A DNA stretch of 64,000 nt from Candidatus Woesearchaeota archaeon (GTDB lineage: Archaea > Nanobdellota > Nanobdellia > Woesearchaeales > GW2011-AR9), in the NCBI GenBank assembly GCA_018676855.1, contig JABHDY010000003.1:445907-509906 (forward strand), in the 5' to 3' direction. The stretch's first letter is position 1. Every line of letters starts with the position of its first letter. Made by a program: the position numbers and the translations under genes. Positions 8,898 through 58,417 of this stretch are shown here, one piece after another. The notes beneath the pieces are model-generated. The model did no database searches. It was not told the origin of the DNA and saw only the letters and a list, made by a program, of their open reading frames with translations.

Positions 8898-11800
8898 TCA
8901 TGTTTCATCTTGTTCTTCAATACGTAACTTAGACGTTAACTGTGGCCAGAAGAAATCTAATACTCCCGTTCCGGACTGTTCAACAATAGCTTCAAATCGT
9001 TGCGTACCAGTACTATCTTTTTCACAGGCCCACTTTTCTGGTAATATTGGCGGTGAAACAGCTTCTAAAGGAATGTTCCATCTTACAGGAGTATCTTCTT
9101 CAACATAATCGCATAACGGTGACGTAAACCCGTCAAATTCTGCAACAAGACGTTGTTTTTTCCGTTGATTGTCTGTAGGCGATCCCTCTTGTTTTTCTAA
9201 ATTACGTATTTCACGAATTGCTTTCACTTCAAACGCATCGTTCTTTAACACATACAAATGGTTAAAGTTCTTAGCTTCGTCAATAAATCCATCTAAACTT
9301 TCAAATTCATTATTTGTAAAAAAATCTGTAAAAAAGTTTTTCACGTTGTCCCACGTTGACGGAACAAGGTTAAACTGTTCTTTACCATACACAAGTGCGT
9401 CAAGATCCTTTGAGTACCATATGTCTGCATCCACACCAAGATCGCAACGAGAAAATTCTTCACCGTCAGCACATTCATCAAGTTGTTCAGGTTCAATGCC
9501 TAACGTGGAAAGGAAACTTGCGGTTGCAACTTTAGTTTCATCTTTATCGGTTTTGAAAGAGTTAAGAGATGTAGCAAACACAACTTTATTTTCACCGCCA
9601 TCCTTGTATCGTACAACACAAACGTTGTTCACGCACGTATTTTCTTTTGTGTCAAGTAATGTAGAATCAACTTTTGAAAAACATGTTGGGTCAGTAACTG
9701 GCGAAGATTCTAATAACTCAACGCCTTCATCAGAAGGTATAGTTTCGGTTACACCATCACCACGGAAATATTGTATTGGAGAATTTGGAAGAGTTTCATC
9801 GTACGGTCCACACGCAATCGTATACTCATCTTTTGCATCTACAAAATCTAAAAATTCTGACGCTATACGTTTTGTCCGAGTTGTCCAACTACCATCTTCA
9901 CAGTAATGGTCAAACACATATTCCGTATTGCCAATACATTGTGGAAGATTTCCTTCCGTATAAAACTCTTCAGTTGATTCTCCATAATTATCACCGGTAT
10001 AAACAAAACAACCGTCGTCCTGTGGACAGAAACCCCAATCACTTTCGTACCAATCAGTTTTAACGTCAGCTTCATTCCACGAACCGTCGATACACCTATA
10101 TGTTCTATCATCAAGAACTTCTACCATGTAGGGATCATCATTCATCGGTTCAACACACGCATATCCGTTCCAACAGAAGTTTGTGGGACAACATGCAATG
10201 CCTGATCGGAAATCGTTTGGAAGTAATTCTTCTTTATTTGAAACGTCAACATCATAATAATCTAACGGTTCTCCATCAACTATTTGTAACATTGGTTTTT
10301 CGACAAAATCTCCTTGTGGAACAGCAATATCACCCCTTCCAGCAATACCAACAGTATCATCACTTGAGCTAGTAAATTCGAGAATAATATATGCAGTATC
10401 TTCAGTATTGATCTCAGCACCGCTAGAAGCTTCTTGTGGACCTTCTTCTGACGTTCCATCATTCATTACTAATGTATATGTGGCTTTAACGTTAAGTCCG
10501 TCATATGTAAAATATAATTTATCTCCAGACACAGGAATCTTTTCTGAACGAAGAGTTTCAGTAGATGTAAGAAAAACTTTTCCCATATCCTCTAGATTTA
10601 ATCCAATATCGTCAAGGAATACATTATCTCTTAAAACCATTCTTGAATCGAACATGTCCCAATGATGAATTGTATCTGAATTTTCAGCATTAAAATCTGC
10701 ATTTGGAATAATGTTTCGTGCAGGTATTGATTTTGTAGGGGGTGTTGTGTCCCTTGATAGTTCTTCACCATTTTCATCTAAAGTAACAGTTTCAAAATCT
10801 TCTGGAGGTATTTCTTCTCCTTCTGTTTCTTTTAAAGGTTTAAGCGAAAGGACAACATCTTCAACCGTATTAGGATTATCAACATCAGCGTAACCACCGT
10901 ACGTGATACCTTCTGAGGTCCATTCGTTTACAGTTACAAATCCTTCTTTTCCTTCCTCTTTATTATACACGCTTGGAGAACAGATAAAACTTTCTTCTCC
11001 ACTTTTCTTAACAGCACAATGTTCAACATTGTCAAAATCTGTACCAAGAGAAGTACTTCCTTCTAAATCAGGTGTTAAACATCCAAAAAATTTATTTTTA
11101 CCTCTCTCATCAGTACCATACAATATTTGTTGAGGAACTTTCTTTGCAATAATGTTTCCCGGATTGTCAAATGTTTGACCTTCTTCATTCGTAATTAATA
11201 CTTCTATTGGTTCACCTTCATCATCACTAGACACAAAGTATAAATCATACAAGTATGGATGTTTATTTGTTATTGTGTATGGAAATGTTCCTGGTAATGG
11301 GTAGGTGCATGTGTCTGATTTGCAGGAGTATTTTATGTTAAAAGGCGTTTCTAAAGAATTTCCAGGAATAAAACTAAATGGATTAAGTTTTTGTGCTTGT
11401 ATTTTAAATGATGAAGCGTAATTGGATAAATCCTGACTTGATATCTCTTTATATAATCCTAAATCAATATCATTACTTATATCAAATAATCTATTTACGT
11501 CCAGATCATTATTCTGTTTTAGTGCAATATATATCCCATTGTCAAAAAAATCTCCATATAATAAATACCCCGAATCACAATAATCATTGCCTAAATGTTG
11601 CTCGCATAATATACATCTTTGAGTAATCTCTGGAAATTTATCTTCAAGATCATGTGTATTTTTGCATGAAAAATCTGTAGGAAAAGTTAATGTTGTTTCA
11701 TCAAGGAATTGTTGTATTTGATCTTTAATACTTATTGTATATATGTCTGGTGAGGAAAACTCTTGAGTAATCTTATATGTTCTTGTTGGTTCATGATAAA

Positions 11801-14213
11801 CTGTCTTTATACCAAAAATTTGATTAATATTACTAAAAGTAAGACTATATCTTCTCTTTAATTTTATAATTATATCACTTGTATAAGAATCCGTTTTTAT
11901 AAAAGAAGGAACCATACTTGTTCCATCAAATTCAACATCCATTATTCTTCCACTAGGTGCTACAATTTCAGAATTCCAACAACCATATTCTCCTTCCTCA
12001 CCAACAAAATTATCATTCTTTCCGTCACCACAACAACCATGATCTTCAGACCATGCATTTCCACCAACAACACTTTGAAAATCAGTAATGTCATCAATAC
12101 CAGAATCATAAAAAGCATTACAAATATAATCTGCTTCAGAATCATCAGAGGGTATCCATACAGAGGGATTATCATTACTTTTACCTGAACAAAAAAGTGT
12201 TGGTTCGGAATTTGTTAAATATACATTTTGTATTTCAATTGTATTTTTAATAATGTCATTATTTGAGGATGGAGATATTACAATCTTATCAACTCGCGTT
12301 AGATCATTAATGGGAATAGAAACGTGTATCCACTTACGTTGAAGATTCTCTTCATTTATTTCGCTTTCCAATAGAGGACTATTTGATGATGACCATAAAA
12401 CATTTCTTTTTAGAAGAGGAAGGTACTCTGAGTTGGACAAAGTAGTATCTTTAGCTAAAAATTCAACAGTAACATCTGCAGGAAGAGTTAATTCTTCATC
12501 AATAAAACGTACCATAAATTCTAAGTTTGTATATCCAGTAAAATCAAAAGTGTAATCTTCCCCATAATATTGTGTATATTGTTCATTTTGTTCGTTTGAA
12601 GAATCAATAATCCAATATTTATCGATAAGACTAGGATTTGGAAAGGAGTATAACGCTTCACCATACATTCTTCCTTTAATTGTATCTTTATTTACTCCAG
12701 GAACAGTACTACTCTCGGAAGCAGCATCTGATGGAACACATTCTGTCCAAGACCAATGTTTTCCCTCTTGATAACAATAAAAACGATTGCTCTTTTGAAA
12801 ATATTCTGGATTTCCTTCAGCTTTTTCTAAAGGGCCGGGAGTGGAACATTTTTTCCATTTTTTTCCATTAGAAACTATATCATAAGGAAACTGTTCTTTA
12901 TGTATAGTCATAATTGAATGTGATATTGTTTGGGCATCAATCCAACACCAATCGGTTTCACAACCTGTTTGGGCATCAATCCAACACCGATCGGTTTCAC
13001 AACCAAAAAAAGGGTTATTGTTCCCTTCTGATTCTTTATTGTATCCCACAAACCATTCTTCATCCTCTACTTTATCTTTCCTTAAACAAACAAATTGTCT
13101 GTCTTCACTATAAGTTTCAAAATCTTCAAAACCATTATTACCACAACACCCATTTCCTATAATATTTTCATCGTAGTCAAAAGAAGTTCCATCGTCTAAA
13201 CCTATATTACATACATCTTCGTTCTGATCTGCATAATCCGAATCAATTCCACAGCCTAAAACTTTTTTTACGTTTGTTTCACAGATTTCGTCACCAGCAC
13301 AACCTAAAAGTGTATCATAACCAATAACATTATCATCTATACTATTAGAACACATATCGTGCCACTTCCAAACTCCATCATTGTCTTTATCAGCATTATC
13401 AATTGATGAATCTGCATAAATAAAATGAGAATCATAACCTTCACCATTATCATTATTATTTTCTGAAATAAAAATAAGTTTAGGATATACTTCTAAAGAT
13501 TGATCATTACCTATATCATTATCAAGAACCATTACAATAACATTCCATCCCTGTGAAAAATAAAATGGATTTTCTGTTTTCCCACTATTTGAATCATAAT
13601 TTTTTTTCCTTCCAATAGAAACTTCTTTACAAGATGATAAATCATTGTTACATGTTGCATGAATAAATGACAAATCGTCATCACTATCTAAAACATTAAA
13701 ATTCTTAATATAAATATCTTCACCTTCGTCAGGTAAAACGTATGTCCAAATAATAAATGCTTGAAGAGTATCCCCGTTAAAAAGGTCTTCTATTCCGCTA
13801 CCTGTATGATATCTAGAACTAAATGGAGGATAAAAATCGTTAAAAAAATATTTTCTCTGATTTCCACTAATAAAATTATCGTAATTATTTAATATTTTAT
13901 AAAACTGTATTTCGTTTCCATATTTTGAATTTACTTCGCTTTGAAATTCATCATTTTTTAGTTTATAAAATGATTCCCACTCTAAAATAAAAGGGTCATC
14001 GTCTTCAACATTAAAAACATAACGGTCATCGTCATCGTTTGGAAAGTTAGCATGCGTCCAATAAAAATCGTCTTTTAATACACTTCCCGGTATAAAATAA
14101 TTTAAAACAAGTGAATCTCTTGTATCTTCATCAACACCAATTCCAGCAAAACTTAAGAGGACTACAAATAGAACCATCACTACAACTACTAACAACCCTC
14201 TTTTTTGTACCAT
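8898..14213 (-). CDS. Giant secreted Cys-rich surface protein (1771 aa)
   Basis: Single uninterrupted ORF. N-terminal signal MVQKRGLLVVVVMVLFVVLLSFAGIG; many Cys pairs; internal 13-aa tandem duplication GCETDRCWIDAQT/GCETDWCWIDAQT. Confidence 0.65.
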   Translation of the reverse strand: MVQKRGLLVVVVMVLFVVLLSFAGIGVDEDTRDSLVLNYFIPGSVLKDDFYWTHANFPNDDDDRYVFNVEDDDPFILEWESFYKLKNDEFQSEVNSKYGNEIQFYKILNNYDNFISGNQRKYFFNDFYPPFSSRYHTGSGIEDLFNGDTLQAFIIWTYVLPDEGEDIYIKNFNVLDSDDDLSFIHATCNNDLSSCKEVSIGRKKNYDSNSGKTENPFYFSQGWNVIVMVLDNDIGNDQSLEVYPKLIFISENNNDNGEGYDSHFIYADSSIDNADKDNDGVWKWHDMCSNSIDDNVIGYDTLLGCAGDEICETNVKKVLGCGIDSDYADQNEDVCNIGLDDGTSFDYDENIIGNGCCGNNGFEDFETYSEDRQFVCLRKDKVEDEEWFVGYNKESEGNNNPFFGCETDRCWIDAQTGCETDWCWIDAQTISHSIMTIHKEQFPYDIVSNGKKWKKCSTPGPLEKAEGNPEYFQKSNRFYCYQEGKHWSWTECVPSDAASESSTVPGVNKDTIKGRMYGEALYSFPNPSLIDKYWIIDSSNEQNEQYTQYYGEDYTFDFTGYTNLEFMVRFIDEELTLPADVTVEFLAKDTTLSNSEYLPLLKRNVLWSSSNSPLLESEINEENLQRKWIHVSIPINDLTRVDKIVISPSSNNDIIKNTIEIQNVYLTNSEPTLFCSGKSNDNPSVWIPSDDSEADYICNAFYDSGIDDITDFQSVVGGNAWSEDHGCCGDGKNDNFVGEEGEYGCWNSEIVAPSGRIMDVEFDGTSMVPSFIKTDSYTSDIIIKLKRRYSLTFSNINQIFGIKTVYHEPTRTYKITQEFSSPDIYTISIKDQIQQFLDETTLTFPTDFSCKNTHDLEDKFPEITQRCILCEQHLGNDYCDSGYLLYGDFFDNGIYIALKQNNDLDVNRLFDISNDIDLGLYKEISSQDLSNYASSFKIQAQKLNPFSFIPGNSLETPFNIKYSCKSDTCTYPLPGTFPYTITNKHPYLYDLYFVSSDDEGEPIEVLITNEEGQTFDNPGNIIAKKVPQQILYGTDERGKNKFFGCLTPDLEGSTSLGTDFDNVEHCAVKKSGEESFICSPSVYNKEEGKEGFVTVNEWTSEGITYGGYADVDNPNTVEDVVLSLKPLKETEGEEIPPEDFETVTLDENGEELSRDTTPPTKSIPARNIIPNADFNAENSDTIHHWDMFDSRMVLRDNVFLDDIGLNLEDMGKVFLTSTETLRSEKIPVSGDKLYFTYDGLNVKATYTLVMNDGTSEEGPQEASSGAEINTEDTAYIILEFTSSSDDTVGIAGRGDIAVPQGDFVEKPMLQIVDGEPLDYYDVDVSNKEELLPNDFRSGIACCPTNFCWNGYACVEPMNDDPYMVEVLDDRTYRCIDGSWNEADVKTDWYESDWGFCPQDDGCFVYTGDNYGESTEEFYTEGNLPQCIGNTEYVFDHYCEDGSWTTRTKRIASEFLDFVDAKDEYTIACGPYDETLPNSPIQYFRGDGVTETIPSDEGVELLESSPVTDPTCFSKVDSTLLDTKENTCVNNVCVVRYKDGGENKVVFATSLNSFKTDKDETKVATASFLSTLGIEPEQLDECADGEEFSRCDLGVDADIWYSKDLDALVYGKEQFNLVPSTWDNVKNFFTDFFTNNEFESLDGFIDEAKNFNHLYVLKNDAFEVKAIREIRNLEKQEGSPTDNQRKKQRLVAEFDGFTSPLCDYVEEDTPVRWNIPLEAVSPPILPEKWACEKDSTGTQRFEAIVEQSGTGVLDFFWPQLTSKLRIEEQDET

Positions 14214-18417: not shown

Positions 18418-20439
18418 ATGGAAGTAGATGAACAAATTAAAATATTCAGGGAATTTATAGAAAAGAATTATTATCCGCAACTTCTTGAAGCAGTGAGGAA
18501 AGGACAAAAATATCTAACGCTTGACTTTGCAGAATTGGTTAAATATAATACAGAAATTGTTGAAGAACTTCTTGAAAGTCCTGAAGAATTGTTAAAAGCT
18601 GCAGAAATTGCTGTGAAAGAGTTTGACCTTCCTAAACGCATTACAAAATTTACTATTCGTTTACAAAATATTGCAGAATCGCAAAAAATTAGTGTAAACG
18701 AAATTAGAAGTAAACACCTTGGTAAGTTTATTTGGTCAGAGGGTATTGTACGACAAAAATCTGATGTTAGGCCGCACGTGACAGCTGCTAAATTTGAATG
18801 TCCTTCATGTGGTAACATATTAAATGTTCTTCAATTAGATAAAAAGTATAAAGAACCTACAAGGTGTGGTTGTGGTAGGAAAGGAAAATTTAAAGAAATT
18901 GCAAAGGAACTTGTTGATGGTCAGGGTTTAGTTCTTGAAGAATCGCCTGACGATCTTGACGGTGCACAACCTAAACGTATCAATGTTTTTTTAAAGGATG
19001 ATTTAGTTTCTCCAATGTCTGAGAGAAAAAGTAGTCCCGGTTCACGTGTACGTATAACGGGTTGGATAACAGAAATTCCTATTAATCTAAGGACTGGTGG
19101 TAAATCAACAAAATATGATTTGGTTCTGGAAGCAAACCATATTAAGCCCGTTCAAGATGATTTTTCTGATCTTCAAATATCTGAAGAAGAGATGGAAGAA
19201 ATTAAAAAAATTGCATATTCAGACAATCCAATTTATGCTCTTTCTTCTAGTATAGCGCCGTCCATTTATGGACATGATAAAGTTAAAGAAGCGTTAGTAT
19301 TACAACTTGCAGGAGGATGTCTTAAAGAGCGGCCTGATGGTGTTACAACAAGGGGAGATATACACATTCTTCTCATTGGAGATCCTGGTTCAGGAAAGTC
19401 TCAATTGCTTAAGAGAATAAGTAAAGTAGGACCAAAAGCACGGTTTACGAGTGGGAAGGGAGCAACGGCAGCTGGACTTACGGCATCGGTCGTGAAGGAC
19501 GAATTTCTTGGTGGATGGAGTCTTGAAGCAGGAACACTTGTATTAGCAAATAAAGGATTTGCAATTATTGATGAGTTAGATAAAATGAGTAAAGAAGATC
19601 GTTCTTCGTTACACGAAGCACTTGAACAGCAAACAATTAGTATTGCAAAGGCAAACATTCAAGCAACGTTACGATGTGAAACTACTGTTCTTGCTGCAGC
19701 AAATCCAAAATTTGGACGATTTGATCCGTACGATCTTATTGCGAACCAAATTAACTTACCACCAACGCTTATCAATAGGTTCGATTTAATATTTCCAATA
19801 AAAGATATGCCTAACAGAGAAAAAGATGAACGAACAGCAGCATTCATATTAAGTCTTCATAAAAATCCTGAAAAAGCTGTTGCGCCAATATCATCTGAAC
19901 TTATAAAAAAATTCTTTTTGTATGTGCGAAAAAGAATTCGTCCACGGATGACCGATGAAGCGATTGAAGAATTAAAAGAATATTATGTTTCGATGAGAAA
20001 TTCTGGTATATCTGATGAAGCTGGTGTTAAAAGTATTCCTATTACTGCACGACAACTTGAAGCTCTTGTACGATTATCAGAAGCAGCGTCAAAATTGCGA
20101 TTAGGTGAAGAAGTTACAAAGAAAGATGCACAAAAAGCTATTGAACTTATAGATTATTGTTTAAACCAGATAGCGAAGGATGCAGAAACGGGAAAAATTG
20201 ATATTGATAGGTTAAGCAGTAGAATAACTGCAACGCAACGAAGTAGTATTAGTGTTGTAAAAGAAGTTATTCAATCAGTGGAAGAACAAATAGGAAACAA
20301 AATAATTCCTGTTGAAAATATTATTGAAGCTGCTAAAGATAAAAATATATCGCAAGAAAATGTTGAAGAAGTTCTTGAAAAGTTACGTCGTTCAGGAGAC
20401 ATATTTGAACCAAAACGAGGATTTATTCAACGTCTTTAA
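18418..20439 (+). CDS. mcm: MCM replicative helicase
   Basis: Zn finger CPSCG...CGCG, Walker A IHILLIGDPGSGKSQLL, Walker B FAIIDELDKM, arginine finger and SRFDLIF motif, C-terminal wH. Confidence 0.95.
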   Translation: MEVDEQIKIFREFIEKNYYPQLLEAVRKGQKYLTLDFAELVKYNTEIVEELLESPEELLKAAEIAVKEFDLPKRITKFTIRLQNIAESQKISVNEIRSKHLGKFIWSEGIVRQKSDVRPHVTAAKFECPSCGNILNVLQLDKKYKEPTRCGCGRKGKFKEIAKELVDGQGLVLEESPDDLDGAQPKRINVFLKDDLVSPMSERKSSPGSRVRITGWITEIPINLRTGGKSTKYDLVLEANHIKPVQDDFSDLQISEEEMEEIKKIAYSDNPIYALSSSIAPSIYGHDKVKEALVLQLAGGCLKERPDGVTTRGDIHILLIGDPGSGKSQLLKRISKVGPKARFTSGKGATAAGLTASVVKDEFLGGWSLEAGTLVLANKGFAIIDELDKMSKEDRSSLHEALEQQTISIAKANIQATLRCETTVLAAANPKFGRFDPYDLIANQINLPPTLINRFDLIFPIKDMPNREKDERTAAFILSLHKNPEKAVAPISSELIKKFFLYVRKRIRPRMTDEAIEELKEYYVSMRNSGISDEAGVKSIPITARQLEALVRLSEAASKLRLGEEVTKKDAQKAIELIDYCLNQIAKDAETGKIDIDRLSSRITATQRSSISVVKEVIQSVEEQIGNKIIPVENIIEAAKDKNISQENVEEVLEKLRRSGDIFEPKRGFIQRL

Positions 20440-20444
20440 AAAAA

Positions 20445-21167
20445 ATGGAATCAACAAAATATATTCGGCACACTGCAATCAAAGTTCTTATCAAAACATT
20501 GCTTTCAGGAAAATTTGTTGAGGAAGATGAACAAAATCAAAATTATTTTCAAACAATACTCAATGAAAAATTGTATAGAATAAATGTTATGGGAATAGTT
20601 GTTCAAAAAGAAACTGTTGGATCAATAACAAATTTACGTATTGATGATGCTTCTGGAAGTATTCCCGTTCGATTTTTTGAAGAACATTCTTCACTTTCTT
20701 CAATTGATATTGGAAGTATCATACGTATTATTGGAAAAGTACGAATGTATAATGAAGAAAAATATATTTCTCCAGAAATTTGTATAAAAAGTACGTCTTC
20801 CTGGCTTAAAGTACGGAAAAAAGAATTAAATGTTAGTAATAATGAAGTACAATCTGAAGAAATTAAAAATGTTGAAGTACCTATTGTAGAAAAAAAAGAA
20901 ATGGAAATAGTAAAAGAAAAAGAAAGTCCTGTTATGGAACATAAAGAAGAAATTGTTGAACAAAAAATTGAAAATGATGATATTGTTGAAGAATTACCAT
21001 TTCAAAAAGTAATGAATTTAATTAAAGAATTGGATACTGGAAATGGCGTTCCTATAGAAAATATTATTGAAAAATCGTCATTAGAAAATACGGGAACTAT
21101 TATCGACAAAATGCTTGAAAAAGGAGACATATTTCAAAACGTTCCTGGTAAAGTAAAAGTTTTGTGA
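20445..21167 (+). CDS. OB-fold plus C-terminal winged-helix protein (RPA32-like / MCM-associated)
   Basis: OB-fold core INVMGIVVQKETVGSITNLRIDDASGSIPVRFF...IIRIIGKVRMY. C-terminal wH (VPIENIIEKSS...EKGDIFQNVPGK) is near-identical in pattern to the MCM C-terminal wH. The gene lies 5 nt downstream of the mcm stop. Confidence 0.5.
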   Translation: MESTKYIRHTAIKVLIKTLLSGKFVEEDEQNQNYFQTILNEKLYRINVMGIVVQKETVGSITNLRIDDASGSIPVRFFEEHSSLSSIDIGSIIRIIGKVRMYNEEKYISPEICIKSTSSWLKVRKKELNVSNNEVQSEEIKNVEVPIVEKKEMEIVKEKESPVMEHKEEIVEQKIENDDIVEELPFQKVMNLIKELDTGNGVPIENIIEKSSLENTGTIIDKMLEKGDIFQNVPGKVKVL

Positions 21168-22022
21168 TCAACCAAATAATACGGGAGTAATATATACTTC
21201 AACGACACCCGCTATTAATAATAAACCAACGCTTATTAATACTAAATCTAACACATCAATTAACACTCTGTTTTCTTTTAAATTATGTTTAATAATTGCA
21301 ATAGAAATTATTCCGCCTGCGAGGCCTGCAACAAAATAAGCGGCTATTTCTAACAAACCGTGCGTCATGTACCGAAAAAAGCTAAACGTAGTCACGCCAA
21401 GGTATGCTGACGCAGAACTTAATCCTACAAGTGTTGTTACTTTTGCTAATTCAGTTTTAATTATATTTCCCATAGCTGCTGCTATAACTGACGCGTTCCA
21501 TGTTAAAATAAAAATTGCACCAGAACCGTATAAAAACGAAAATATTAAACAGAAAAATAAAACTTTAATATTATTCATAAATATTTTTCCAAAAAGATTA
21601 ATTTTTGTTATTCCTCCAGTAATGTTTGCCTGAACATTATTATTAACGCTTACTATAGCTTCATTTTGTAATGAAAATACTGTATCAACAATTGCAGATG
21701 GAAATGCTATGTACGAAAAAACAAGTCCTGCAGTTATTCCTAAAAAAAGAAACATGAAAAACACAAGCACTTTTGTATGTTCCTTTAACAATTTCCATTC
21801 TTTTGTATATTTAAGATCTAATTCTTCCTCATTTCGTATCGCTGTGTAAAGAATAGGAAGAGTAGAAAGAACGACTAAAAATACGAGAAGAAGACCTGCA
21901 GCGTCCCTAAATACTATATATGATAAAACAAAAGCTATTAATGAATACACAAATCCTGCAATAAACATTTGCCAGGGCCTTTTTTTTAAACCAAACGGAT
22001 TAAACAGTGATTCTAGAACCAT
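21168..22022 (-). CDS. SpoIIM/DUF95-like multi-pass membrane protein
   Basis: 6 or more TM helices; THGLLEIAAYFVAGLAGG motif resembles the SpoIIM family HG..E signature. Confidence 0.45.
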   Translation of the reverse strand: MVLESLFNPFGLKKRPWQMFIAGFVYSLIAFVLSYIVFRDAAGLLLVFLVVLSTLPILYTAIRNEEELDLKYTKEWKLLKEHTKVLVFFMFLFLGITAGLVFSYIAFPSAIVDTVFSLQNEAIVSVNNNVQANITGGITKINLFGKIFMNNIKVLFFCLIFSFLYGSGAIFILTWNASVIAAAMGNIIKTELAKVTTLVGLSSASAYLGVTTFSFFRYMTHGLLEIAAYFVAGLAGGIISIAIIKHNLKENRVLIDVLDLVLISVGLLLIAGVVEVYITPVLFG

Positions 22023-22170
22023 ACATAAATGAAGCGAATAAATGTATTTAAATGTTTTTATGTTTTTGAGATAGAAAATATATGATAATTATATTTATTT
22101 ACTACTTCACCAATATTACAAACATTACAAAAATATTTTTAATTAATTATTATTATTTTAATCAACAAAA

Positions 22171-22200
22171 CATTCCCACCCCTCGGTTTCTTATGGAAAC
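22171..22200 (-). promoter_or_regulatory. ORB-like element 1
   Basis: Minus-strand reading GTTTCCATAAGAAACCGAGGGGTGGGAATG: imperfect dyad GTTTC/GAAAC followed by a G-string, as in archaeal origin recognition boxes. Confidence 0.45.
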
Positions 22201-22280
22201 TGTAAAAATTAAAAAAAGTTTGTTGTGGTAAAAGTTTGTTTGTACAACAAATGTGTGTTTTGTGATCAATACCACAAAGT

Positions 22281-22306
22281 AACCCTCATTCTTCGTGTGG
22301 AAAACC
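22281..22306 (-). promoter_or_regulatory. ORB-like element 2
   Basis: Minus-strand reading GGTTTTCCACACGAAGAATGAGGGTT; on the plus strand it contains TTCGTGTGGAAAAC, similar to the mini-ORB TTCCAGTGGAAAC. Confidence 0.45.
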
Positions 22307-22698
22307 ATATTTAATTAATTAATTAATTAAAATAATTTATTATATTATATGTTAAATGTAATCATTTGAATTGTCAAAACAAAACTTCCAATAATTTAAC
22401 AATTCTCAACTATCACTTCTTTTTAGCTTTATTATTATTATTATTATTATTTATATTATATAATATATATATATATATATATTTTCTATATAGAAAATAA
22501 ATAAATAAATAAAACGGGAAACAAAAAAAGTTTGAAAAAAAAAGTTTCGTTACTACTTTTCAATCTATCAATAATTATTTATATGACTTCCATCCGCAAT
22601 AGACTTAACAAAACATATATGTGTTAACTGTTATATTATATATTGATATTCTTTATATAATAAACATAACAAACAACACTTCACAACAACAAAAACAC

Positions 22699-22722
22699 GT
22701 TTTCCAAAGGAAATGAGGGGGT
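22699..22722 (+). promoter_or_regulatory. ORB-like element 3 (inverted relative to elements 1 and 2); overlaps the probable cdc6 RBS
   Basis: GTTTTCCAAAGGAAATGAGGGGGT. GGAAATGA...GGGGG resembles the Pyrococcus ORB. GAGGGGG lies 8 nt before the cdc6 ATG and could also be a Shine-Dalgarno. Confidence 0.4.
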
Positions 22723-22726
22723 CACT

Positions 22727-23929
22727 ATGTTAAAGATAGGTACATTTTTTGAAAATTTTTTAAAAAAAGATTCGATTTTTACTGAAAAATCAATTCTTTT
22801 ATCGGCGTATATGCCACATGAGATCATGTACAGAGAAGAACAGATAAAAGAAGCTGCTAATATACTTGCACCCGCATTACGTTTAGAAAGACCATCTAAT
22901 CTATTTATTTATGGTAAAACTGGAACAGGAAAAACTCTTTCTATTAAACATATTATGAATTCAATGAATAGTATTGCAGAAACTAATACTATCTCCATGA
23001 AAATGATATATTTAAATTGTAAATTAAAACGTGTTGCCGATACTGAATATCGTTTATTATCACAATTATGTAAAGAATTTGGGAGAGAAGTTCCCACAAC
23101 GGGTCTTCCAACAGATGAAGTATATTCAATATTTTACAAATTGTTGGATGAAACAAAACAAGTAATTGTTTTAATATTAGATGAGATTGACCATTTAACA
23201 AAAAAAATAGGCGATGAAATATTATATAATTTAACTAGAATTAATGCTGAACTTAAAAATGCTCAAATATGTATTGTTGGAATTTCAAATAATTTAGTAT
23301 TTTCAGAAAATCTTGATCCTCGCGTTAAATCTTCACTTTCAGAAGAAGAAATTATATTTCCACCATACAATGCACTTCAAATACAAGACATTCTCAGAAA
23401 TCGAACAACAAAAGCATTTAAAGAAAATATTGTTCAAACGGGAGTTATAGAAAAATGTTCTGCATATGCTGCTCGTGAACATGGTGATATACGACGAGCG
23501 ATAGACCTTTTACGTGTTTCAGGAGAAGTAGCTGAGCGGAGTGGTTCATCTATTGTTACTATTACACATCTTGACGAGGCAGAACGAAAAGTTGAATCTG
23601 ATAAAACTATTAGTGCCGCAATAAATCAACCAAAACAATTTCAAACAGTTTTGTATGCCATTTTACTCATATCTCCACAAAAAAATCATTTTTTTACGGG
23701 AGAAATATATGAAGTGTACAAAAAAATATGTACAAAAAACAATTTTAATGTTTTAACTCAACGTCGTATTTCAGACATTTTAGCAGAATTAGATATGTTA
23801 GGAATAATTAATGCAAAAATAATTTCTAAAGGAAGATATGGAAGAACTCGCGAGATTTCACTTTCTTTAGAGGAATCAATTACAATAAAACTTCGTGAAG
23901 TATTAGAAAAATCGTTACGAGTATCATAA
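22727..23929 (+). CDS. cdc6: Orc1/Cdc6 replication initiator
   Basis: AAA+ Walker A IYGKTGTGKT, Walker B ILDEIDHL, sensor motifs, C-terminal wH. Confidence 0.9.
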   Translation: MLKIGTFFENFLKKDSIFTEKSILLSAYMPHEIMYREEQIKEAANILAPALRLERPSNLFIYGKTGTGKTLSIKHIMNSMNSIAETNTISMKMIYLNCKLKRVADTEYRLLSQLCKEFGREVPTTGLPTDEVYSIFYKLLDETKQVIVLILDEIDHLTKKIGDEILYNLTRINAELKNAQICIVGISNNLVFSENLDPRVKSSLSEEEIIFPPYNALQIQDILRNRTTKAFKENIVQTGVIEKCSAYAAREHGDIRRAIDLLRVSGEVAERSGSSIVTITHLDEAERKVESDKTISAAINQPKQFQTVLYAILLISPQKNHFFTGEIYEVYKKICTKNNFNVLTQRRISDILAELDMLGIINAKIISKGRYGRTREISLSLEESITIKLREVLEKSLRVS

Positions 23930-23931
23930 TC

Positions 23932-25614
23932 ATGGAACCTAATGATAAATTAATTGGAACACTTTTTAATAAAGGAATACTTGTCAATAAAGACATTTTT
24001 ACAAATAACGTTCCAGAAAACATTCTTGATCAAATTGAATCTGAATCTGATCTTTTAGTTTTAAATTCTGATTATGTTGATATTGTAACTCAACCAGAAA
24101 ATTTAGTTGATTGGTACGAAATTGATAAATATAGAGTGGATTCTGAAAAAGATAGAAATGATGAATTATATCAATCACATTTACAAACATTCAAACGAAC
24201 AACAGTAACAATTCAAAACACAAACAATGAAAAGACTATCAAACAAGATGTTACAAGTTTAGAAACAACACTTGATAATAATTCAAGTACATTTTCTACA
24301 GAATCTTCTTTTGAAGAAAAACCTATCATTTCATCTTCTTCCGTTCCACAAATAAATTCTTCAGTTACTATTGTTATTTCTCACAAAAATGTTCCAAAAA
24401 AATATACTGTTTCAGATTTTGCACAATTTTTCGTTTCCCGATACAAATTTTTAGAAAATATTCTTCGTTCTCGTCAAGAATTACAAAATACATTAACAAT
24501 AAATCGTGTATTAGGAAAAAAAGAACGAGGAGCAGTTTCGGTGATAGGTCTTGTTCAAGATATCAATGAAACCAAAAATGGTAATCTTATTATTACACTT
24601 GAAGATGTCACAGATAGAATAAAAATATTTGTTGGCAAAAAAGATAAAATGTTATTTGCACAGGCAAAAGATCTCGTATTTGATGAAGTTATTGGCGTTT
24701 CAGGAACGTCAGGAGAAGGAATAATTTTTTCTGATACTATCTTATGGCCAGACGTTCCTCATAACCTTGAAATGAAGAAAAGTCCTATTGAAGAATATGC
24801 AATTTTTTTATCAGACATACATGTTGGATCAAACGTTTTTTTACCAGAAGAATTTTCTCAATTCATTAAATGGATCAACGGTTCTGTTGGAAATGAAAAA
24901 CAGCGTGCTATTGCACACAAAACTAAATATATTCTTATTGCAGGAGATTTGGTTGATGGTATAGGCATTTATCCTTCACAAATAGATGAATTAACAATAA
25001 CAGATATACGTGAACAGTATGAAGAATTTGTTCGTCTTATATCTCAAATTCCGTCAGATAAACAAATAATTATTTGTCCCGGAAATCATGATGCAGTTCA
25101 TTTAGCAGAACCACAATCAGCATTTAATGAAGAATTTTGTTCTGCATTATTTACCCTTCCTAATATTACTTTAGTAACAAATCCGGGAATGGTAACTATT
25201 GGAAAAACCGACACATTTTCAGGATTTAACGTTTTGTTATATCATGGATATAGTTTTGATTATTACGTTTCTGAAGTTGAATCTATTAGAAATAGTGGTG
25301 GATATCATCGAGCAGATTTATTAATGAAATTTATGTTAAAACGACGTCATATGGCCCCATCATTTAAATCAACACCATATTATCCTTCACATAAAGAAGA
25401 TCCTCTTTTAATAAAAGTAATTCCTGACTTTTTCATCACGGGACATATCCATTATTCAAAAGTTGCCAATTATAAAGGTGTTACAATGATATGTGGAAGT
25501 TGTTGGCAGGGAAAAACGTCATTTCAAGAAAAACTTGGTCACGAACCTGAACCAGCACGAGTACCCGTTGTAAACTTAAAAACAAGAGATGTTAAAATTT
25601 TAAAATTTATATAA
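23932..25614 (+). CDS. polD1: DNA polymerase D small subunit (DP1), with Ser-rich N-terminal extension
   Basis: Calcineurin-like phosphoesterase motifs GDLVDGIGIYP, ICPGNHD, GHIHY. OB domain upstream. Stop overlaps the DP2 start. Confidence 0.85.
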   Translation: MEPNDKLIGTLFNKGILVNKDIFTNNVPENILDQIESESDLLVLNSDYVDIVTQPENLVDWYEIDKYRVDSEKDRNDELYQSHLQTFKRTTVTIQNTNNEKTIKQDVTSLETTLDNNSSTFSTESSFEEKPIISSSSVPQINSSVTIVISHKNVPKKYTVSDFAQFFVSRYKFLENILRSRQELQNTLTINRVLGKKERGAVSVIGLVQDINETKNGNLIITLEDVTDRIKIFVGKKDKMLFAQAKDLVFDEVIGVSGTSGEGIIFSDTILWPDVPHNLEMKKSPIEEYAIFLSDIHVGSNVFLPEEFSQFIKWINGSVGNEKQRAIAHKTKYILIAGDLVDGIGIYPSQIDELTITDIREQYEEFVRLISQIPSDKQIIICPGNHDAVHLAEPQSAFNEEFCSALFTLPNITLVTNPGMVTIGKTDTFSGFNVLLYHGYSFDYYVSEVESIRNSGGYHRADLLMKFMLKRRHMAPSFKSTPYYPSHKEDPLLIKVIPDFFITGHIHYSKVANYKGVTMICGSCWQGKTSFQEKLGHEPEPARVPVVNLKTRDVKILKFI

Positions 25615-28600
25615 TGGCATCAACCATATCTCCAGACATGCAAAAGTACTTTGCTCAAATCAATGCTGATGTTAAACGTAGTTATGATATTGCTCGTAAG
25701 GCAAAAAAGAAAGGGTTGGACATTGATGACGATGTTCCCATTCCCGTTGCAAAAAATATGGCTGAACGTGTTGTTGGTTTAATATCTGTTATTGCACCAC
25801 AAATTGTTGGAACAACAATACCTCAAAGAATAATTGAACTTGAAAAAAAGTATGGAACACTTGATTGGCGAGTTGCATTAAAAATTTCTGAAGAAGTTGC
25901 AAAACAAAAATTTTGTGAGTTTAAAGATAAAATTGAAGCTATGGAAATTGGAATACGAATAGGCTTTTCATATTTAACGTTAGGCGTTGTTTCAGCTCCA
26001 TTAGAAGGATTTATTGGACTTAAAATTAAAAAAAGAAAAGATGGTAAAGAATATTTTGCGTTACAATATGCGGGACCTATTCGTGCAGCTGGTGGAACGG
26101 GTTCGTCAGTTTCTGTTATCCTTTCAGATTATGTTCGTATGAAAATGGGCTATGCGCCGTATGATCCAGAAGAAGTTGAAGTCAATAGATACGCAGCAGA
26201 AGTTCACGATTATCATGATCGTGTTACTAACTTACAATATCATCCCTCTGATGAAGAATTAAAATTTTTAGTATCTCATTTACCTGTTGAAGTTGACGGC
26301 GATCCAACAGAAAAGTTTGAAGTGTCAAATTATAAAGATTTACCTCGAATAGAAACAAACAGAATTCGTGGTGGAGTTGCATTGGTACTTGCTGAGGGTC
26401 TATCTCAAAAATCTCCCAAATTATGGAAAAAATTATCAAAATGGGGTAAAGAATTTGGATTAGAATGGGATTGGCTAAAAGATTTTCTTGAACTGAAAGA
26501 AAAGATTCATGCAAACGTTTCATCGGATAAAGATAAGAAAGAAGATGTAAATGATGGAAAGAAAAAAGTTAAACCTAACAACACATTTATTATGGATTTA
26601 GTTGCCGGAAGGCCCATATTTACTCATCCCCTTGCTGTTGGCGGATTTCGTTTACGGTATGGCCGTGGAAGAACATGTGGCATGTACGCTGTAGGTATCC
26701 ATCCCGCAACGATGGTTGTCCTAAACGATTTTATTGCAGTAGGAACACAACTTAAAGTTGAACGGCCTCGTAAGGGAGCATCAGCTACTGTCTGCGATAC
26801 AATTGAAGGTCCAACAGTAAGGCTTATTGATGGTACTGTTCTCCGATTAGATTCTGCTGAAGATGCAAAGAACGTTAAAAAAGATATTGAAACAATTTTA
26901 TTTCTTGGCGATATCATGTTTAACTATGGCGATTTTGCAGAAAGTGGCCATGACCTTGTGCCCGTAGGATATTGTCCTGAATGGTGGATATTAGAAGTAG
27001 AAAAAGCAATGAAAAATTTGTTTAACGAAAAGCATGTTCAAAAATCGGCAGAAAAATTAGGGGTTAAAGAAAGCGAAATACAAATATTGTTTGATAATCC
27101 GTTGCACAAAATTCCACCATGGTCATTAGCAAAACAAATCAGCGAACAATTTCATGTTCCTTTACACCCAGAATATACATATTATTGGAACCTTATTTCT
27201 GGCGAAGATTTAATTGTTCTCAAAGAATGGATGATGGAAGGCAAAATTAAAGTTCATGAAGAAAAAGTTATAAAAATTATATTTCCTTATACACAAAAGA
27301 ACGAATTATATATGCAAGGTAAAAAGATTCTCGAAGAATGTGGCATTTCTCATAAAGTTATTACAAAAGAAAATATTATTCTTGAAAAGAAAGAAGCAGA
27401 AGTAATAGCATTTTTGTTTGATTTTAAAGATCAAAAAGGTCTTGAAAAAATTTCATTAAAATCTGAGACTATTAAAAACAAAACGGCATTAGAAGTTCTC
27501 AATTTTGTTAATAATGTTACAATACGAGACAAAGCTGGGACGTTTATTGGTGCTCGAATGGGCCGCCCAGAAAAAGCTAAGATGCGTCAAATGACTGGTT
27601 CGCCACAAATGATGTTTCCCGTTGGAGAAGAAGGTGATAGGTTACGAAGTGTTCAATCAGCATTAAAAGCTGGCAAAATACGTAGCATTTTTCCTTTATT
27701 TTATTGTTCTCCATGCGATAAAGATATGATCTATCCTCGTTGTGAAGAATGTGGTAAGGAATGTACACAAAAATACTTTTGTCGTTTTTGTGGAGATGTG
27801 GATAAAGAAACGTGCCGTCACGGTGATACAAACACATTCAAAACACAAGATATTGACATTGCATATTATCTTGATAGAGCAAAGAAAAAGTTGGGAGAAA
27901 AAATTCATCCTGATTTAATAAAGGGTGTACGAGGTACGTCAAATAAAGACCATCTTGTTGAACATCTTGCAAAAGGAATTTTGCGTGCAAAACATAACGT
28001 GTATGTTAATAAAGATGGTACTATTCGATATGATGCAACAGAACTTCCTTTAACACATTTTAAACCTAAAGAGATTCATACGTCTGTTGAAAAACTTCGC
28101 GAATTAGGGTACGAAAAAGATATTAAAGGAAATTTGATAGAAAACGATACTCAAATAATTGAACTTAAACCTCAAGATGTTGTTCTTTCAGGATTTAATT
28201 CGTTAGAAGAATCTGCATCTATCGTTTTAACACGTATTGCCAACTTCATTGATAATCTCCTTGTAAGTTTTTATGGTTTGAAACCTTTTTATAACATTAC
28301 AAAAACGCAAGATCTTGTAGGACATCTTGTTATTGGCTTAGCACCACACATTTCTGCAGGTATTGTTGGTCGTATTGTTGGATTTTCAGAAACGCAAAGT
28401 TTGATTGCACATCCCATGTATCATGCTGCTATGAGGCGTGATTGTGACGGTGATGAAAGTTGTGTTATGATGTTAATGGACGCATTGTTAAATTTTTCAA
28501 GGCAATACCTTCCTGAAAGGCGTGGCGCGAAAACTATGGATGCACCACTTGTTTTAACTTCAACTATTAATCCTGCAGAGGTTGATGATCAAGTATTAGA

Positions 28601-29213
28601 AATGGATACTGTCTGGAAATATCCACTTGAATTGTTTGAAGCGGCGTTAGAAATGAAAAAGCCGTGGGACGTTGTTGATAGTAACAATAAAAAAATCGAT
28701 CAGTTAAGCAAACATATAGGAACACCTTTACAATACGAAGGGTTTGGGTTTACTCACGATGTTGACAATTTTAATATGGGTGTGTTATGTTCAGCGTATA
28801 AAACCCTTCCTTCAATGGCAGAAAAGTTGGTTGGCCAGATGGAAATTGCAAAAATAGTAAGAGCGGTTGACATGGACGACGTTGCTAAATTGGTGATTCA
28901 AAAACATTTTTTAAAAGATATTAAAGGAAATTTACGAAAGTTTAGTATGCAACAATTTCGATGCGGTAAATGTAATACAAAATATCGAAGACCGCCATTA
29001 AACAGTAAATGTTCAGAATGTGGAAATAAATTAATGTTTACAATTTCTGAAGGTTCAGTTGTTAAGTATCTTGGTCCTTCATTAATGCTAGCAGAAAAGT
29101 ACGATTTTTCTCCCTATCTTAAACAAACGTTAGACATTCTTAAAGATAATGTTGATACTATTTTTGGAAAGGAAAAAGATAAACAGGTAGGATTAGGAAG
29201 TTTTATGGGTTAA
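25614..29213 (+). CDS. polD2: DNA polymerase D large subunit (DP2)
   Basis: 1199 aa. Conserved RRDCDGDE motif and Zn fingers CSPC...CEEC...CRFCG and CGKC...CSECG. No intein. Confidence 0.9.
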   Translation: MASTISPDMQKYFAQINADVKRSYDIARKAKKKGLDIDDDVPIPVAKNMAERVVGLISVIAPQIVGTTIPQRIIELEKKYGTLDWRVALKISEEVAKQKFCEFKDKIEAMEIGIRIGFSYLTLGVVSAPLEGFIGLKIKKRKDGKEYFALQYAGPIRAAGGTGSSVSVILSDYVRMKMGYAPYDPEEVEVNRYAAEVHDYHDRVTNLQYHPSDEELKFLVSHLPVEVDGDPTEKFEVSNYKDLPRIETNRIRGGVALVLAEGLSQKSPKLWKKLSKWGKEFGLEWDWLKDFLELKEKIHANVSSDKDKKEDVNDGKKKVKPNNTFIMDLVAGRPIFTHPLAVGGFRLRYGRGRTCGMYAVGIHPATMVVLNDFIAVGTQLKVERPRKGASATVCDTIEGPTVRLIDGTVLRLDSAEDAKNVKKDIETILFLGDIMFNYGDFAESGHDLVPVGYCPEWWILEVEKAMKNLFNEKHVQKSAEKLGVKESEIQILFDNPLHKIPPWSLAKQISEQFHVPLHPEYTYYWNLISGEDLIVLKEWMMEGKIKVHEEKVIKIIFPYTQKNELYMQGKKILEECGISHKVITKENIILEKKEAEVIAFLFDFKDQKGLEKISLKSETIKNKTALEVLNFVNNVTIRDKAGTFIGARMGRPEKAKMRQMTGSPQMMFPVGEEGDRLRSVQSALKAGKIRSIFPLFYCSPCDKDMIYPRCEECGKECTQKYFCRFCGDVDKETCRHGDTNTFKTQDIDIAYYLDRAKKKLGEKIHPDLIKGVRGTSNKDHLVEHLAKGILRAKHNVYVNKDGTIRYDATELPLTHFKPKEIHTSVEKLRELGYEKDIKGNLIENDTQIIELKPQDVVLSGFNSLEESASIVLTRIANFIDNLLVSFYGLKPFYNITKTQDLVGHLVIGLAPHISAGIVGRIVGFSETQSLIAHPMYHAAMRRDCDGDESCVMMLMDALLNFSRQYLPERRGAKTMDAPLVLTSTINPAEVDDQVLEMDTVWKYPLELFEAALEMKKPWDVVDSNNKKIDQLSKHIGTPLQYEGFGFTHDVDNFNMGVLCSAYKTLPSMAEKLVGQMEIAKIVRAVDMDDVAKLVIQKHFLKDIKGNLRKFSMQQFRCGKCNTKYRRPPLNSKCSECGNKLMFTISEGSVVKYLGPSLMLAEKYDFSPYLKQTLDILKDNVDTIFGKEKDKQVGLGSFMG

Positions 29214-47704: not shown

Positions 47705-47808
47705 TGCGGACGGCAGGGCTCGAACCTGCGTAGGTACTAAACCAATGGATTTTGAGTCCATCCCGTTAAGTCCACAATTATTGTGTTTGACCACTCCGGC
47801 ACGTCCGC
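47705..47808 (-). tRNA. tRNA-Leu(CAA) with an extra segment of about 19 nt in the D-arm
   Basis: Minus strand: GCGGACG TG CCGG AGTGGTCAAA [CACAATAATTGTGGACTTA] ACGG G ATGGA CTCAAAA TCCAT long V-arm GCAGG TTCGAGC CCTGC CGTCCGC A. Upstream TTTATAAAAT at about -30. Confidence 0.55.
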
Positions 47809-55849: not shown

Positions 55850-58417
55850 ATGACTGAAAATAGCCCAGAAACTAAGGACAAAATCATTTCAAAAGTGATT
55901 GAAGATGAGATGAAACAGGCATACGTCAATTATGCTATGTCTGTCATAGTTGGGAGGGCCCTGCCTGATGTTAGAGACGGTTTGAAGCCTGTTCATAGAA
56001 GGATTCTGTACAGTATGTTTGACATGGGTATGCTTCATAATAGACCGTTTAAGAAATGTGCACGTATTGTAGGGGAAGTTTTAGGAAAGTATCATCCTCA
56101 CGGTGACAGTTCTGTATATGACGCCCTTGTACGTATGGCCCAAGACTTTTCATTACGATATCCTCTTGTTAAAGGTCAAGGAAATTTTGGAAGTATTGAT
56201 GGCGATTCTGCAGCTGCAATGAGATATACGGAAGCGAAACTTAACAAGCTTGCAGAAGATTTGTTGAAAGATATTGACAAAGAAACCGTATCATTCAAAC
56301 CTAATTTTGATGCTTCGTTAAAGGAACCAGAAGTACTTCCAAGCGTTATTCCAAATTTACTCATTAATGGTTCTTCAGGAATTGCTGTTGGTATGGCAAC
56401 GAACATTCCACCACATAACGTTAACGAAGTATGTAGTGGTGTTATTGCAACTATTAACAATCCAGACATTACAACTGAAGAATTGATGGAAATCATTCCT
56501 GCACCTGACTTTCCAACTGGTGGAGAAGTTATATGTGGAAATGCGTTATGGTACGCATATTCTAAAGGAAAGGGAAAAGTTAAGATTAAAGCAATAACAG
56601 AATTTGAAGATGATAAAATTATTGTAAAAGAAATTCCGTACCAAGTTAATAAAGAAGAACTTATTCAACATATTGCGTCGCTTGTTCGTGATAAACGAAT
56701 TATTGGAATTAGAAATATTAATGATGAATCGGATAGGGAAGGTATCAGAATAGTTATTGATCTTAAGAAAGATACCGATGCAAATGTTATCCTTAACCAA
56801 CTTTTTAAGTATAGTAGGTTAAAAATATCGTTCGGCATAACTTTCCTTGCATTAGTAAATAATGAACCTAAACGTCTTGGTTTGATAGAGTTCATGCAAC
56901 ATCATATTAACCATAGAAAAGACGTTATTACAAAAAGAACACAATATGATTTATTGCAGGCACAAAAACGTGTTCATATTCTTGACGGTCTTCTTATTGC
57001 ATTAGAGAATATTGATACTGTTATTCCAGGAATTAAAAAGAGTGCAACTGTTGAAGATGCAAAACAGTTCCTTATGGAAACGTATGATCTGAGTGAATTA
57101 CAAGCAAAAGCTATTCTTGAAATGCGCCTTCAGAAACTTGCATCTCTTGAACAGGACAAAATTAGAAATGAACATACAGAATTACATGAAAAAATCACGT
57201 TATATGAATCAATCCTTGCATCTGAAGAGAAAGTTTTAGACCTTATAAAAACTGAACTTATAGAAATTAAAGAAAAGTATGGTGATGAACGACGATCGAA
57301 GATTATATACGGAGAGGACGAAGATTTTGACATTGAAGAATTGATTGAAGAAAGTACAGTTGTTGTTACAATGACAAATTCTGGGTATATCAAACGTCTT
57401 CCATTAGATACGTATAAGACACAGAGACGTGGCGGTAAGGGTATGATTGCTGCTGGAACAAGGGAAGAAGATTTTGTTGAAAAGGTTTATGTTACAAGTA
57501 CGCACGATTATGTGTTATTCTTTACAGATAAAGGACAGTTATATTGGTTAAAAGTATATCAAATACCTGAGGGTAGGAGACAATCTAAAGGCAAACATAT
57601 TGTTAACCTTATTGATTTACGTCAGGATGAAAAAATCACTGCAACCGTACCAGTACGAGATTTTAAGGAAGGATTTCTTTTCATGGCAACAGAAATGGGA
57701 ACGGTAAAAAAAACAGAACTAACATACTTTTCAAAGCCAAGAAAAGCAGGTATTCGTGCCCTTACGCTTGATGAAGGTGATACACTTGTTGGTGTACGGT
57801 ACACTAACGGTAATCATGAAATTCTTCTTGCAACTAAGAAAGGTCTTGCAAATAGGTTTAAAGAAAAAGATATCAGATCAATGGGAAGAACTGCACGCGG
57901 AGTTAGAGGTATAAGATTATCTTCTGAAGATAAAGTTATTGGAATGCTCGCTGCAGAAGAGGGTAAGAATATTCTTACGATAACAGAGAAAGGTTATGGA
58001 AAAAGAACTCCAGTATCAGATTATCGTTTATGTAAACGTGGCGGTAAAGGTGTTATGAACATGAGAATAACAGAAAAGAATGGTCCTGTAAAATCTGTAA
58101 AGCTTGTTGATGGAAATGAAGAACTTATGTTAATTTCAAAGAACGGTATTGGTATTAGAATAAAATGTTCAGACATTTCAATCATAGGACGTGCAACACA
58201 GGGTGTCCGTGTTATGCGTATGAATGATAATGATGAAGTTGCTGCAGCTGCCAAAGTTGTTATTGAAGATGGTGAAGTTGCAGAAATTGAAAATGAAGAA
58301 TCTTCAGATTCAGTAACAGAAGATCTACCCGAAGCACAAGAAACACAAGAAGCACAAGAAACGGAAGATATAGAAGAAACACAAGAAGCAGATGAAACAG
58401 AAGATGTGAAAGAATGA
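55850..58417 (+). CDS. gyrA: DNA gyrase subunit A
   Basis: N-terminus [32 protein letters not shown]; active-site AAMRYTE; C-terminal beta-pinwheel repeats; acidic tail. Confidence 0.9.

Follow-up and report, generated by a model that had tools for sequence, protein, structure and literature searches.

The 704-nt non-coding gap (positions 22023–22726) directly upstream of the orc1/cdc6 gene of a Candidatus Woesearchaeota archaeon is likely to be the chromosomal replication origin of this Woesearchaeales (DPANN) archaeon, of the Orc1-1/oriC1 type. The gap lies within a 64,000-nt stretch of contig JABHDY010000003.1 (GenBank assembly GCA_018676855.1, positions 445,907 to 509,906 of the forward strand), which we analyzed over its whole length and refer to as the window. 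Several features of the sequence support the assignment: an origin recognition box (ORB) core followed by a G-run, inversion of the boxes around AT-rich DNA, adjacency to an initiator gene of the Orc1-1 type, uniqueness of the boxes across the window, and their conservation among relatives. The gap also appears to hold two divergent promoters. As had been proposed in the original prediction, which was made from the letters of the window, the gap is non-coding: it contains no open reading frame (ORF) longer than 49 aa, those of 49 aa or fewer are of low complexity, and a comparison with Rfam gave no match at the gathering threshold or at E ≤ 1.

Inverted recognition boxes upstream of cdc6

The original prediction described three copies of a motif composed of a short dyad and a G-string. 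All three are found in the sequence as written, with true spans of 22176–22200 (not 22171–22200) for box 1, 22281–22305 for box 2, and 22699–22722 for box 3. The pattern TTTCCANNNGAAN{2,5}GAGGG matches these three sites and no others on both strands of the 64 kb, and has no match in 100 shuffles. This pattern was taken from the three window copies themselves, and we therefore built an independent model from relatives. We gathered related loci, 16 of them genomic and 80 metagenomic, located the cdc6 start in each, and derived a 24-nt weight matrix from the sequences of 43 relatives, with the window excluded. With this matrix, just two sites in the window score strongly: the outer left box (GTTTCCATAAGAAACCGAGGGGTG; 22177–22200, minus strand) at 35.5 bits and the outer right, cdc6-proximal box (TTTTCCAAAGGAAATGAGGGGGTC; 22700–22723, plus strand) at 34.7 bits. 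The next match in the window scores 10.0 bits, and the best over 20 shuffles scores 19.6. Both strong boxes have the 21-nt form TTCCA-N3-GAAAY-N3-GGGGT, which comprises the ORB core TTCC...GAA and a G-run. They stand ~500 nt apart and are inverted relative to each other, with both G-runs facing outward, and the proximal box ends 4 nt upstream of the orc1/cdc6 ATG.

The three motif copies are thus all present and unique in 64 kb, but they are not equal, two being strong and the middle one degenerate. This inner left box (TTTTCCACACGAAGAATGAGGGTT; 22281–22304, minus strand) scores only 3.7 bits in a fixed register because it carries GAAGA, a spacer longer by one base, and GAGGGTT; its core-only score is 6.5 bits. 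It nevertheless fits the gapped pattern, for which no match is expected by chance, and it gains credibility from several relatives that also carry a second minus-strand box inward of the distal one, 104 to 135 nt inside in five loci (L018, L022, L027, L028, and L042) and 176 nt inside in another (L015). A further site at 22586–22609 (plus strand; ACTTCCATCCGCAATAGACTTAAC), 140 nt before the ATG, is probably a fourth, vestigial box that the original prediction overlooked. It lacks a G-run, scores 11.6 bits with the core and −7.8 bits with the full model, and is not significant alone. Core-only matches of at least 10 bits number 23 across the window; the gap accounts for three of them, at the two strong boxes and at this candidate. 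Among the relatives, a weak plus-strand box, TTCCAYCNGCAAYATAGG, is found between −100 and −200 from the ATG in 20 of 43, where ~0.3 would be expected, and the candidate agrees with it in both position and sequence.

The resulting order is a strong minus-strand box, 104 nt, a weak minus-strand box, 281 nt of AT-rich DNA, a weak plus-strand box, 114 nt, a strong plus-strand box, and the ATG. The spacer between the inner boxes (22305–22585) is a candidate DNA unwinding element (DUE). Its core, 22411–22510, is the least stable 100 nt in the 64 kb, at −89.1 kcal/mol compared with a mean of −122.8 (SD 6.4), or ~5 SD below the window mean. The segment 22307–22515 is 89.5% A+T, and, whether measured over 100, 200, or 400 nt, A+T content in the window peaks in the gap, which also holds the window's two longest pure A/T runs (58 and 44 nt). 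All four simple repeats that had been named could be confirmed and placed: (TTAA)n at 22311–22347, (TTA)n at 22429–22459, (TA)n at 22448–22482, and (AAAT)n at 22495–22513. The least stable core is flanked by the minus-strand boxes on one side and the plus-strand box at 22700–22723 on the other, in agreement with the claim of inverted boxes around an AT-rich DUE.

Chance resemblance in AT-rich junk DNA, to which the weakness of the middle box and of the candidate fourth box might each point, is refuted for the two strong boxes and is very improbable as a whole, given two ~35-bit sites against a shuffle maximum of 19.6, the absence of any pattern match in the 100 shuffles, and a layout kept in relatives.

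The layout is conserved among Woesearchaeal relatives

Close relatives, with Cdc6 identity of 66% or more, nearly all have a box directly before the ATG, in one register. These proximal boxes amount to 45 distinct sequences. In most of them the box lies 23 to 35 nt before the ATG (counted from TTCCA), and in all 45 the spacer between GAAAY and the G-run is 3 nt. For the layout as a whole we counted close relatives whose upstream DNA extends for 1300 nt or more, of which there are 27. In 25 of these, every minus-strand box is upstream of every plus-strand box, with G-runs outward, and a distal box equivalent to the outer left box of the window is present; a mixed order was never seen. The inner separation of the boxes has a median of 655 nt (range, 475–1196). 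Outside the upstream region, the relatives yielded a single match of at least 20 bits in 157 kb, and no other box cluster was found in the window or in the relatives' flanks. The motif is clade-wide, position-specific, and polarity-specific. It is not a generic promoter motif, which the original prediction had named as a finding that would speak against it; in the 64-kb window, too, the full model has no other match above 10 bits. These observations argue strongly that boxes, polarity, and spacer have been kept by purifying selection across many genomes at 70 to 79% Cdc6 identity.

Outside the boxes themselves, the relatives show a T-rich segment inward of the distal box, where the T fraction at positions −20 to −11 is 0.61. 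In many loci (L006, L009, L026, L030, L037, L041, L050, L053, L056, and others) this takes the form of a run of 7 to 9 T on the box strand, 11 to 20 nt inward. Its counterpart in the window is an A-run on the plus strand (a T-run on the box strand) at 22207–22222, 7 to 22 nt inward of the left box. No T-run was found beside the proximal box. The T-run might serve as a bend, as a stop for inward transcription, or as a single-strand contact of Orc1. An A/C-rich tract beside the boxes was considered as a symmetric origin element and rejected, for the two sides are asymmetric: the plus strand is A-rich at both ends, and the T-run accompanies the distal box only.

Contig ends fall in the 700 nt upstream of cdc6 at 29 of 85 non-redundant loci (among them L001, L003, L004, L007, L010, L014, L020–L025, and L032–L039), compared with 13 at which they fall within 700 nt past the stop codon of this gene; the AT-rich simple-repeat spacer seems to be a point at which short-read assemblies break. 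The window's Cdc6 is 100% identical to an entry that NCBI labels Candidatus Woesearchaeota archaeon, and relatives at 60 to 79% identity under this label number in the thousands. Five typical Woesearchaeal cdc6 loci (L007, L008, L009, L016, and L011) are deposited as "uncultured Methanosarcinales archaeon" or "Candidatus Nomurabacteria bacterium" and are probably mislabeled or mis-binned.

The initiator and its gene neighborhood

The orc1/cdc6 gene (22727–23929, plus strand) encodes a protein of 400 aa with the Pfam domains Cdc6_C, Cdc6_lid, and AAA and a match of 411 bits to NCBIfam TIGR02928. Its best relatives of solved structure are Saccharolobus (Sulfolobus) solfataricus Orc1-1 (2qby_A; E 3e-99) and Aeropyrum pernix ORC1 (2v1u_A; E 1e-91), and Orc1-3 and other paralogues score far lower. 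Both of these best relatives have been crystallized on ORB DNA. In the alignment with the structural homologues, conservation is evident in the stretch that corresponds to the initiator-specific motif (VPxTGL) and in GRYGRTxEI of the winged helix. There is no second orc1 paralogue within the 64-kb window. Across the Nanobdellota, Orc1/Cdc6 is reported to be a core gene present in one copy (bioRxiv 10.64898/2026.05.13.725050), which fits a single cognate origin.

To the left of the gap lie the genes of MCM (18418–20439, plus strand), of an RPA32-like OB-fold protein (20445–21167, plus strand; 8aas_B, E 3e-8), and, divergent from orc1/cdc6, of a SpoIIM-like membrane protein (21168–22022, minus strand). 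To the right, orc1/cdc6 is followed on the plus strand by the genes of the small (DP1; 23932–25614) and large (DP2; 25614–29213) subunits of PolD. Order and orientation of all these elements, gap included, are the same in 30 of 30 close relatives, so that the oriC–cdc6–DP1–DP2 synteny proposed at the outset is borne out both in the window and among its relatives. The island of replication genes (18418–29213) surrounds the predicted origin, and the fixed place of the SpoIIM-like membrane protein within it (L002–L059) is puzzling.

Comparison with characterized archaeal origins

We compared the gap with origins from four archaeal groups. Pyrococcus Cdc6 binds ORBs, TTCCAGTGGAAATGAAACTCTGGGGGG, of which TTCC and GAA form the invariant core, and in the Pyrococcus origin a pair of inverted 34-bp ORBs is joined by numerous 13-bp mini-ORBs and by another cluster within dp1 (PMC1904270). 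The core of the window boxes agrees with that of the experimentally bound P. furiosus ORBs (TTCCAGTGGAAAT...GGGGGG) and is nearly identical to the Pyrococcus core TTCCAnnGGAAAT (PMC1904270). Together with the scores of the two strong sites, this upholds the earlier reading of dyad and G-string as ORB architecture. The likeness to Thermococcales extends to the order oriC, cdc6, dp1, dp2 and to the placement of inverted ORBs within an intergenic region of ~0.7 to 0.8 kb (PMC1904270). A match to a Pyrococcus-type origin, as had been claimed, holds for this gene order but not for the details. The Pyrococcus ORB is long, 34 bp, with its G-run ~10 nt past the core, whereas the window box is short, with a 3-nt spacer before GGGGT. 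The window has neither a mini-ORB swarm in the gap nor a full-model box match in dp1, and the origin is flanked by the MCM and RPA32-like genes rather than by radA. Three relatives have weak to moderate plus-strand box matches of 15 to 23 bits at the 3′ end of dp1 (L037, +2763; L050, +2684; L053, +2678; counted from the cdc6 start), which recall the Pyrococcus dp1 cluster.

The closest solved initiator comes from Sulfolobus/Saccharolobus, whose oriC1 likewise has, immediately before the initiator gene, inverted boxes around an AT-rich DUE. There, the inverted ORB2 and ORB3 surround the DUE, each is bound by one Orc1-1 monomer with defined polarity, both are essential, and ORB-bound Orc1-1 recruits MCM to the DUE (PMC12141716). 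Sulfolobus differs in having three origins and several initiators, whereas the Woesearchaeal lineage has a single Orc1. A counterpart of the ucm/UBP motif did not turn up in the gap, although no search aimed at it was made.

Ori1 of Aeropyrum pernix is the most similar in layout (two boxes on each side), and its ORC1 is the second-closest structure to the encoded protein. With a G-run only a few bases after GAAAC, the short box of the window resembles what we take to be the 22-bp form of the Aeropyrum ORB. Ori1 has four ORBs and undergoes Orc1-dependent melting of the AT-rich region between the second and the third (PMC8287685). Unlike in Ori1, the inner boxes of the window are degenerate, the right inner one lacks a G-run, and the spacer consists of simple-sequence repeats; the genome also differs, with a G+C content of ~33% in the window and an organism that is probably a mesophile. 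In haloarchaea, oriC1 has inverted ORBs ending in a "G-string" beside cdc6, a feature used as a criterion for origin prediction (PMC3528665). The window shares the inversion, the terminal G-run, and the adjoining cdc6, whereas haloarchaeal G-strings are longer and halophile-specific and the genomes carry many orc paralogues and origins.

Taking these homologues as a guide, one ATP-bound Orc1 monomer would occupy each box with fixed polarity, its winged helix on the TTCC...GAAA dyad and the initiator-specific motif of its AAA+ domain on the G-run, and binding would bend and underwind the DNA. The AT-rich spacer may then receive MCM, whose gene lies 2.3 kb upstream, through recruitment by two inward-facing sets of Orc1, and bidirectional replication would start there. 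The winged helix of Orc1 faces the DUE to recruit MCM, which is consistent with the dyad-inward polarity of the boxes and is no test of that polarity.

A possible link between the proximal box and initiator expression

The position of the proximal box suggests that it acts in expression of cdc6 as well. A TATA-like element, TTTATATAA (22652–22660, plus strand), presumably the cdc6 promoter, lies 41 nt upstream of the box, and similar elements occur in relatives, mostly 50 to 80 nt upstream of theirs; the box is therefore probably contained in the cdc6 5′ leader, ~20 to 40 nt downstream of the predicted transcription start. Its G-run (22715–22722) ends 5 nt before the ATG (−12 to −5), the usual position of a Shine–Dalgarno sequence, and very probably serves as one. 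Most of the 54 called genes of the window have a TATA-like TTTATAAA or TTTAAATA ~25 to 35 nt before the ATG and no Shine–Dalgarno sequence, which suggests that mRNAs in the window are mainly leaderless. The SpoIIM-like gene appears to follow this arrangement, with a TATA-like element, ATTTAAATAC (22044–22055, minus strand), ~22 to 32 nt before its ATG. Shine–Dalgarno-like G-runs are found at only ~9 genes in the window, including those of MCM, TBP, and cdc6.

The original prediction had named, as a finding that would speak against it, a G-run acting solely as the cdc6 ribosome-binding site. That is not what we see, because the adjoining TTCCANNNGAAA dyad is kept in 43 other genomes and recurs in inverted orientation 500 to 1200 nt upstream. 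A dual role of the proximal box as Orc1 site and Shine–Dalgarno sequence is likely, and autorepression is possible. Origin-bound Orc1 would in that case also throttle transcription of its own gene and couple the supply of initiator to the state of the origin. That this one 21-nt element combines three jobs, as a landing site for Orc1, as an operator of its own gene, and as a ribosome-binding site, is a tentative proposal that we hold to be somewhat doubtful.

A sister clade (L012 and L060–L096; Cdc6 ~60% identical) shows a different arrangement. Its cdc6 looks leaderless, with a TATA box at −30, and its main plus-strand box is shifted to between −80 and −190. Within the last 40 nt before the cdc6 ATG, 22 of 34 loci have an inverted (minus-strand) box-like dyad that follows the TATA box and precedes the ATG, as in TTTATAAA-CCTCTGCTTCTTCTGGAA-n5-ATG. 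Placed within the core promoter, this dyad looks like an autorepression operator, and it points to a coupling of origin to initiator expression.

Weighing the origin against other readings

Several points weigh against the proposed origin. GC and AT skew at third codon positions (GC3 and AT3), corrected for coding strand, show no significant switch at ~22.4 kb or elsewhere; the best values (p ~0.05–0.08) occur at several positions, and a 64-kb window has little power. The raw cumulative GC skew has its minimum near 14 to 15 kb and follows the coding strand. Nor do genes tend to run away from the site (8 of 15 to its left and 22 of 39 to its right). The strong boxes are ~500 nt apart (~280 nt for the inner boxes), a distance much greater than the ~130-bp ORB3–DUE–ORB2 unit of Sulfolobus, and the outward polarity of the G-runs relative to the DUE, read here from Woesearchaeal loci, may differ from that of the model origins. 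Binding, unwinding, and initiation at the gap are themselves predictions from sequence. With raw skew tracking the coding strand and corrected skew lacking a switch, we rejected skew as evidence either for or against an origin.

One rival reading grants the gap a genuine origin anatomy but holds that it is dormant or seldom used; replication of the chromosome would then rely chiefly on recombination-dependent initiation or begin elsewhere. Thermococcales use their canonical oriC conditionally, and it can be little used, dispensable, or lost (PMC11005403), so origin anatomy is not proof of use. The missing skew signal and the missing bias in gene orientation within the window also favor this reading. 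On the other side, skew is poorly detectable within 64 kb, and boxes, polarity, and spacer appear to be under purifying selection in many genomes that have diverged to 70 to 79% Cdc6 identity. We regard dormancy as improbable.

Marginally less probable still is that the boxes are Orc1 operators that regulate only cdc6, and perhaps the SpoIIM-like gene, with the AT-rich DNA a promoter or spacer and replication starting elsewhere. The proximal box does sit inside the predicted cdc6 leader and adjoins the ATG, the sister-clade dyad between the TATA box and the leaderless ATG occupies a classic repressor position, and Sulfolobus Orc1-2 exemplifies Orc1 paralogues as pure transcription regulators (PMC9738581). 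A promoter operator, though, needs neither a distal inverted box 500 to 1200 nt away in fixed polarity nor the extremely AT-rich DNA between the two, and the distal box is ~155 nt from the SpoIIM-like start, far beyond that gene's TATA element at approximately −30. The encoded protein is, moreover, of the initiator type Orc1-1 and single-copy in its phylum, so its origin must exist somewhere, and neither the window nor the relatives' flanks offer another box cluster.

Far behind these is the reading of dyad and G-run as an RNA element of the cdc6 5′ leader, a hairpin with a Shine–Dalgarno sequence, and not as a DNA site. In its favor, the box next to cdc6 is probably transcribed, and its dyad can form a 7-bp hairpin right before the G-run. 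The fold is no better than that of shuffled sequences (z = −0.31), and stem positions vary without compensation in 83 strong boxes, pair 5–9, for instance, being C-G in 37 and C-A in 37; these two results weigh against the hairpin. The motif also occurs inverted hundreds of nucleotides upstream, outside any such leader. A replication origin remains the reading that we favor.

Other features of the window

Three further features were recorded away from the predicted origin. Rfam gives a tRNA match of 50.5 bits over 104 nt at 47705–47808 (minus strand), whereas ARAGORN reports no tRNA in the window; the match is probably to an archaeal tRNA with an intron. A near-perfect 39-nt tandem duplication (12927–13004) lies inside an ORF of 1772 aa (8898–14213, minus strand). 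An array of ~8 copies of the 9-nt repeat GAAACACAA (58331–58414) is located at the 3′ end of an ORF of 856 aa (55850–58417, plus strand).

Implications for Woesearchaeales

We know of no DPANN archaeon with an experimentally mapped origin, and our search of the literature found no account of ORBs in Woesearchaeota or other DPANN archaea. Recent work on complete Nanobdellota genomes used orc1 in place of the origin when rotating them (bioRxiv 10.64898/2026.05.13.725050). Our prediction follows the standard rules for archaeal origins and is of a well-known type, with a layout that recurs in dozens of uncultured DPANN relatives. The box consensus TTCCA-N3-GAAAY-N3-GGGGT, the outward polarity, the layout of two boxes on either side, and the replication-gene island together make up a testable origin model for Woesearchaeales, which could be used to set genome coordinates, to interpret growth rates estimated from read depth in metagenomes, and to design binding assays. 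The Orc1-1/oriC1 module would thus have been kept almost unchanged in highly reduced archaea, a result that is expected rather than surprising. If the proximal box does perform all three jobs, these symbionts with their tiny genomes would have initiator synthesis hard-wired to the occupancy of the origin. The coupling itself would have been rewired in the divergence of sister lineages, one using a plus-strand box with a Shine–Dalgarno sequence and the other an inverted box within the core promoter.

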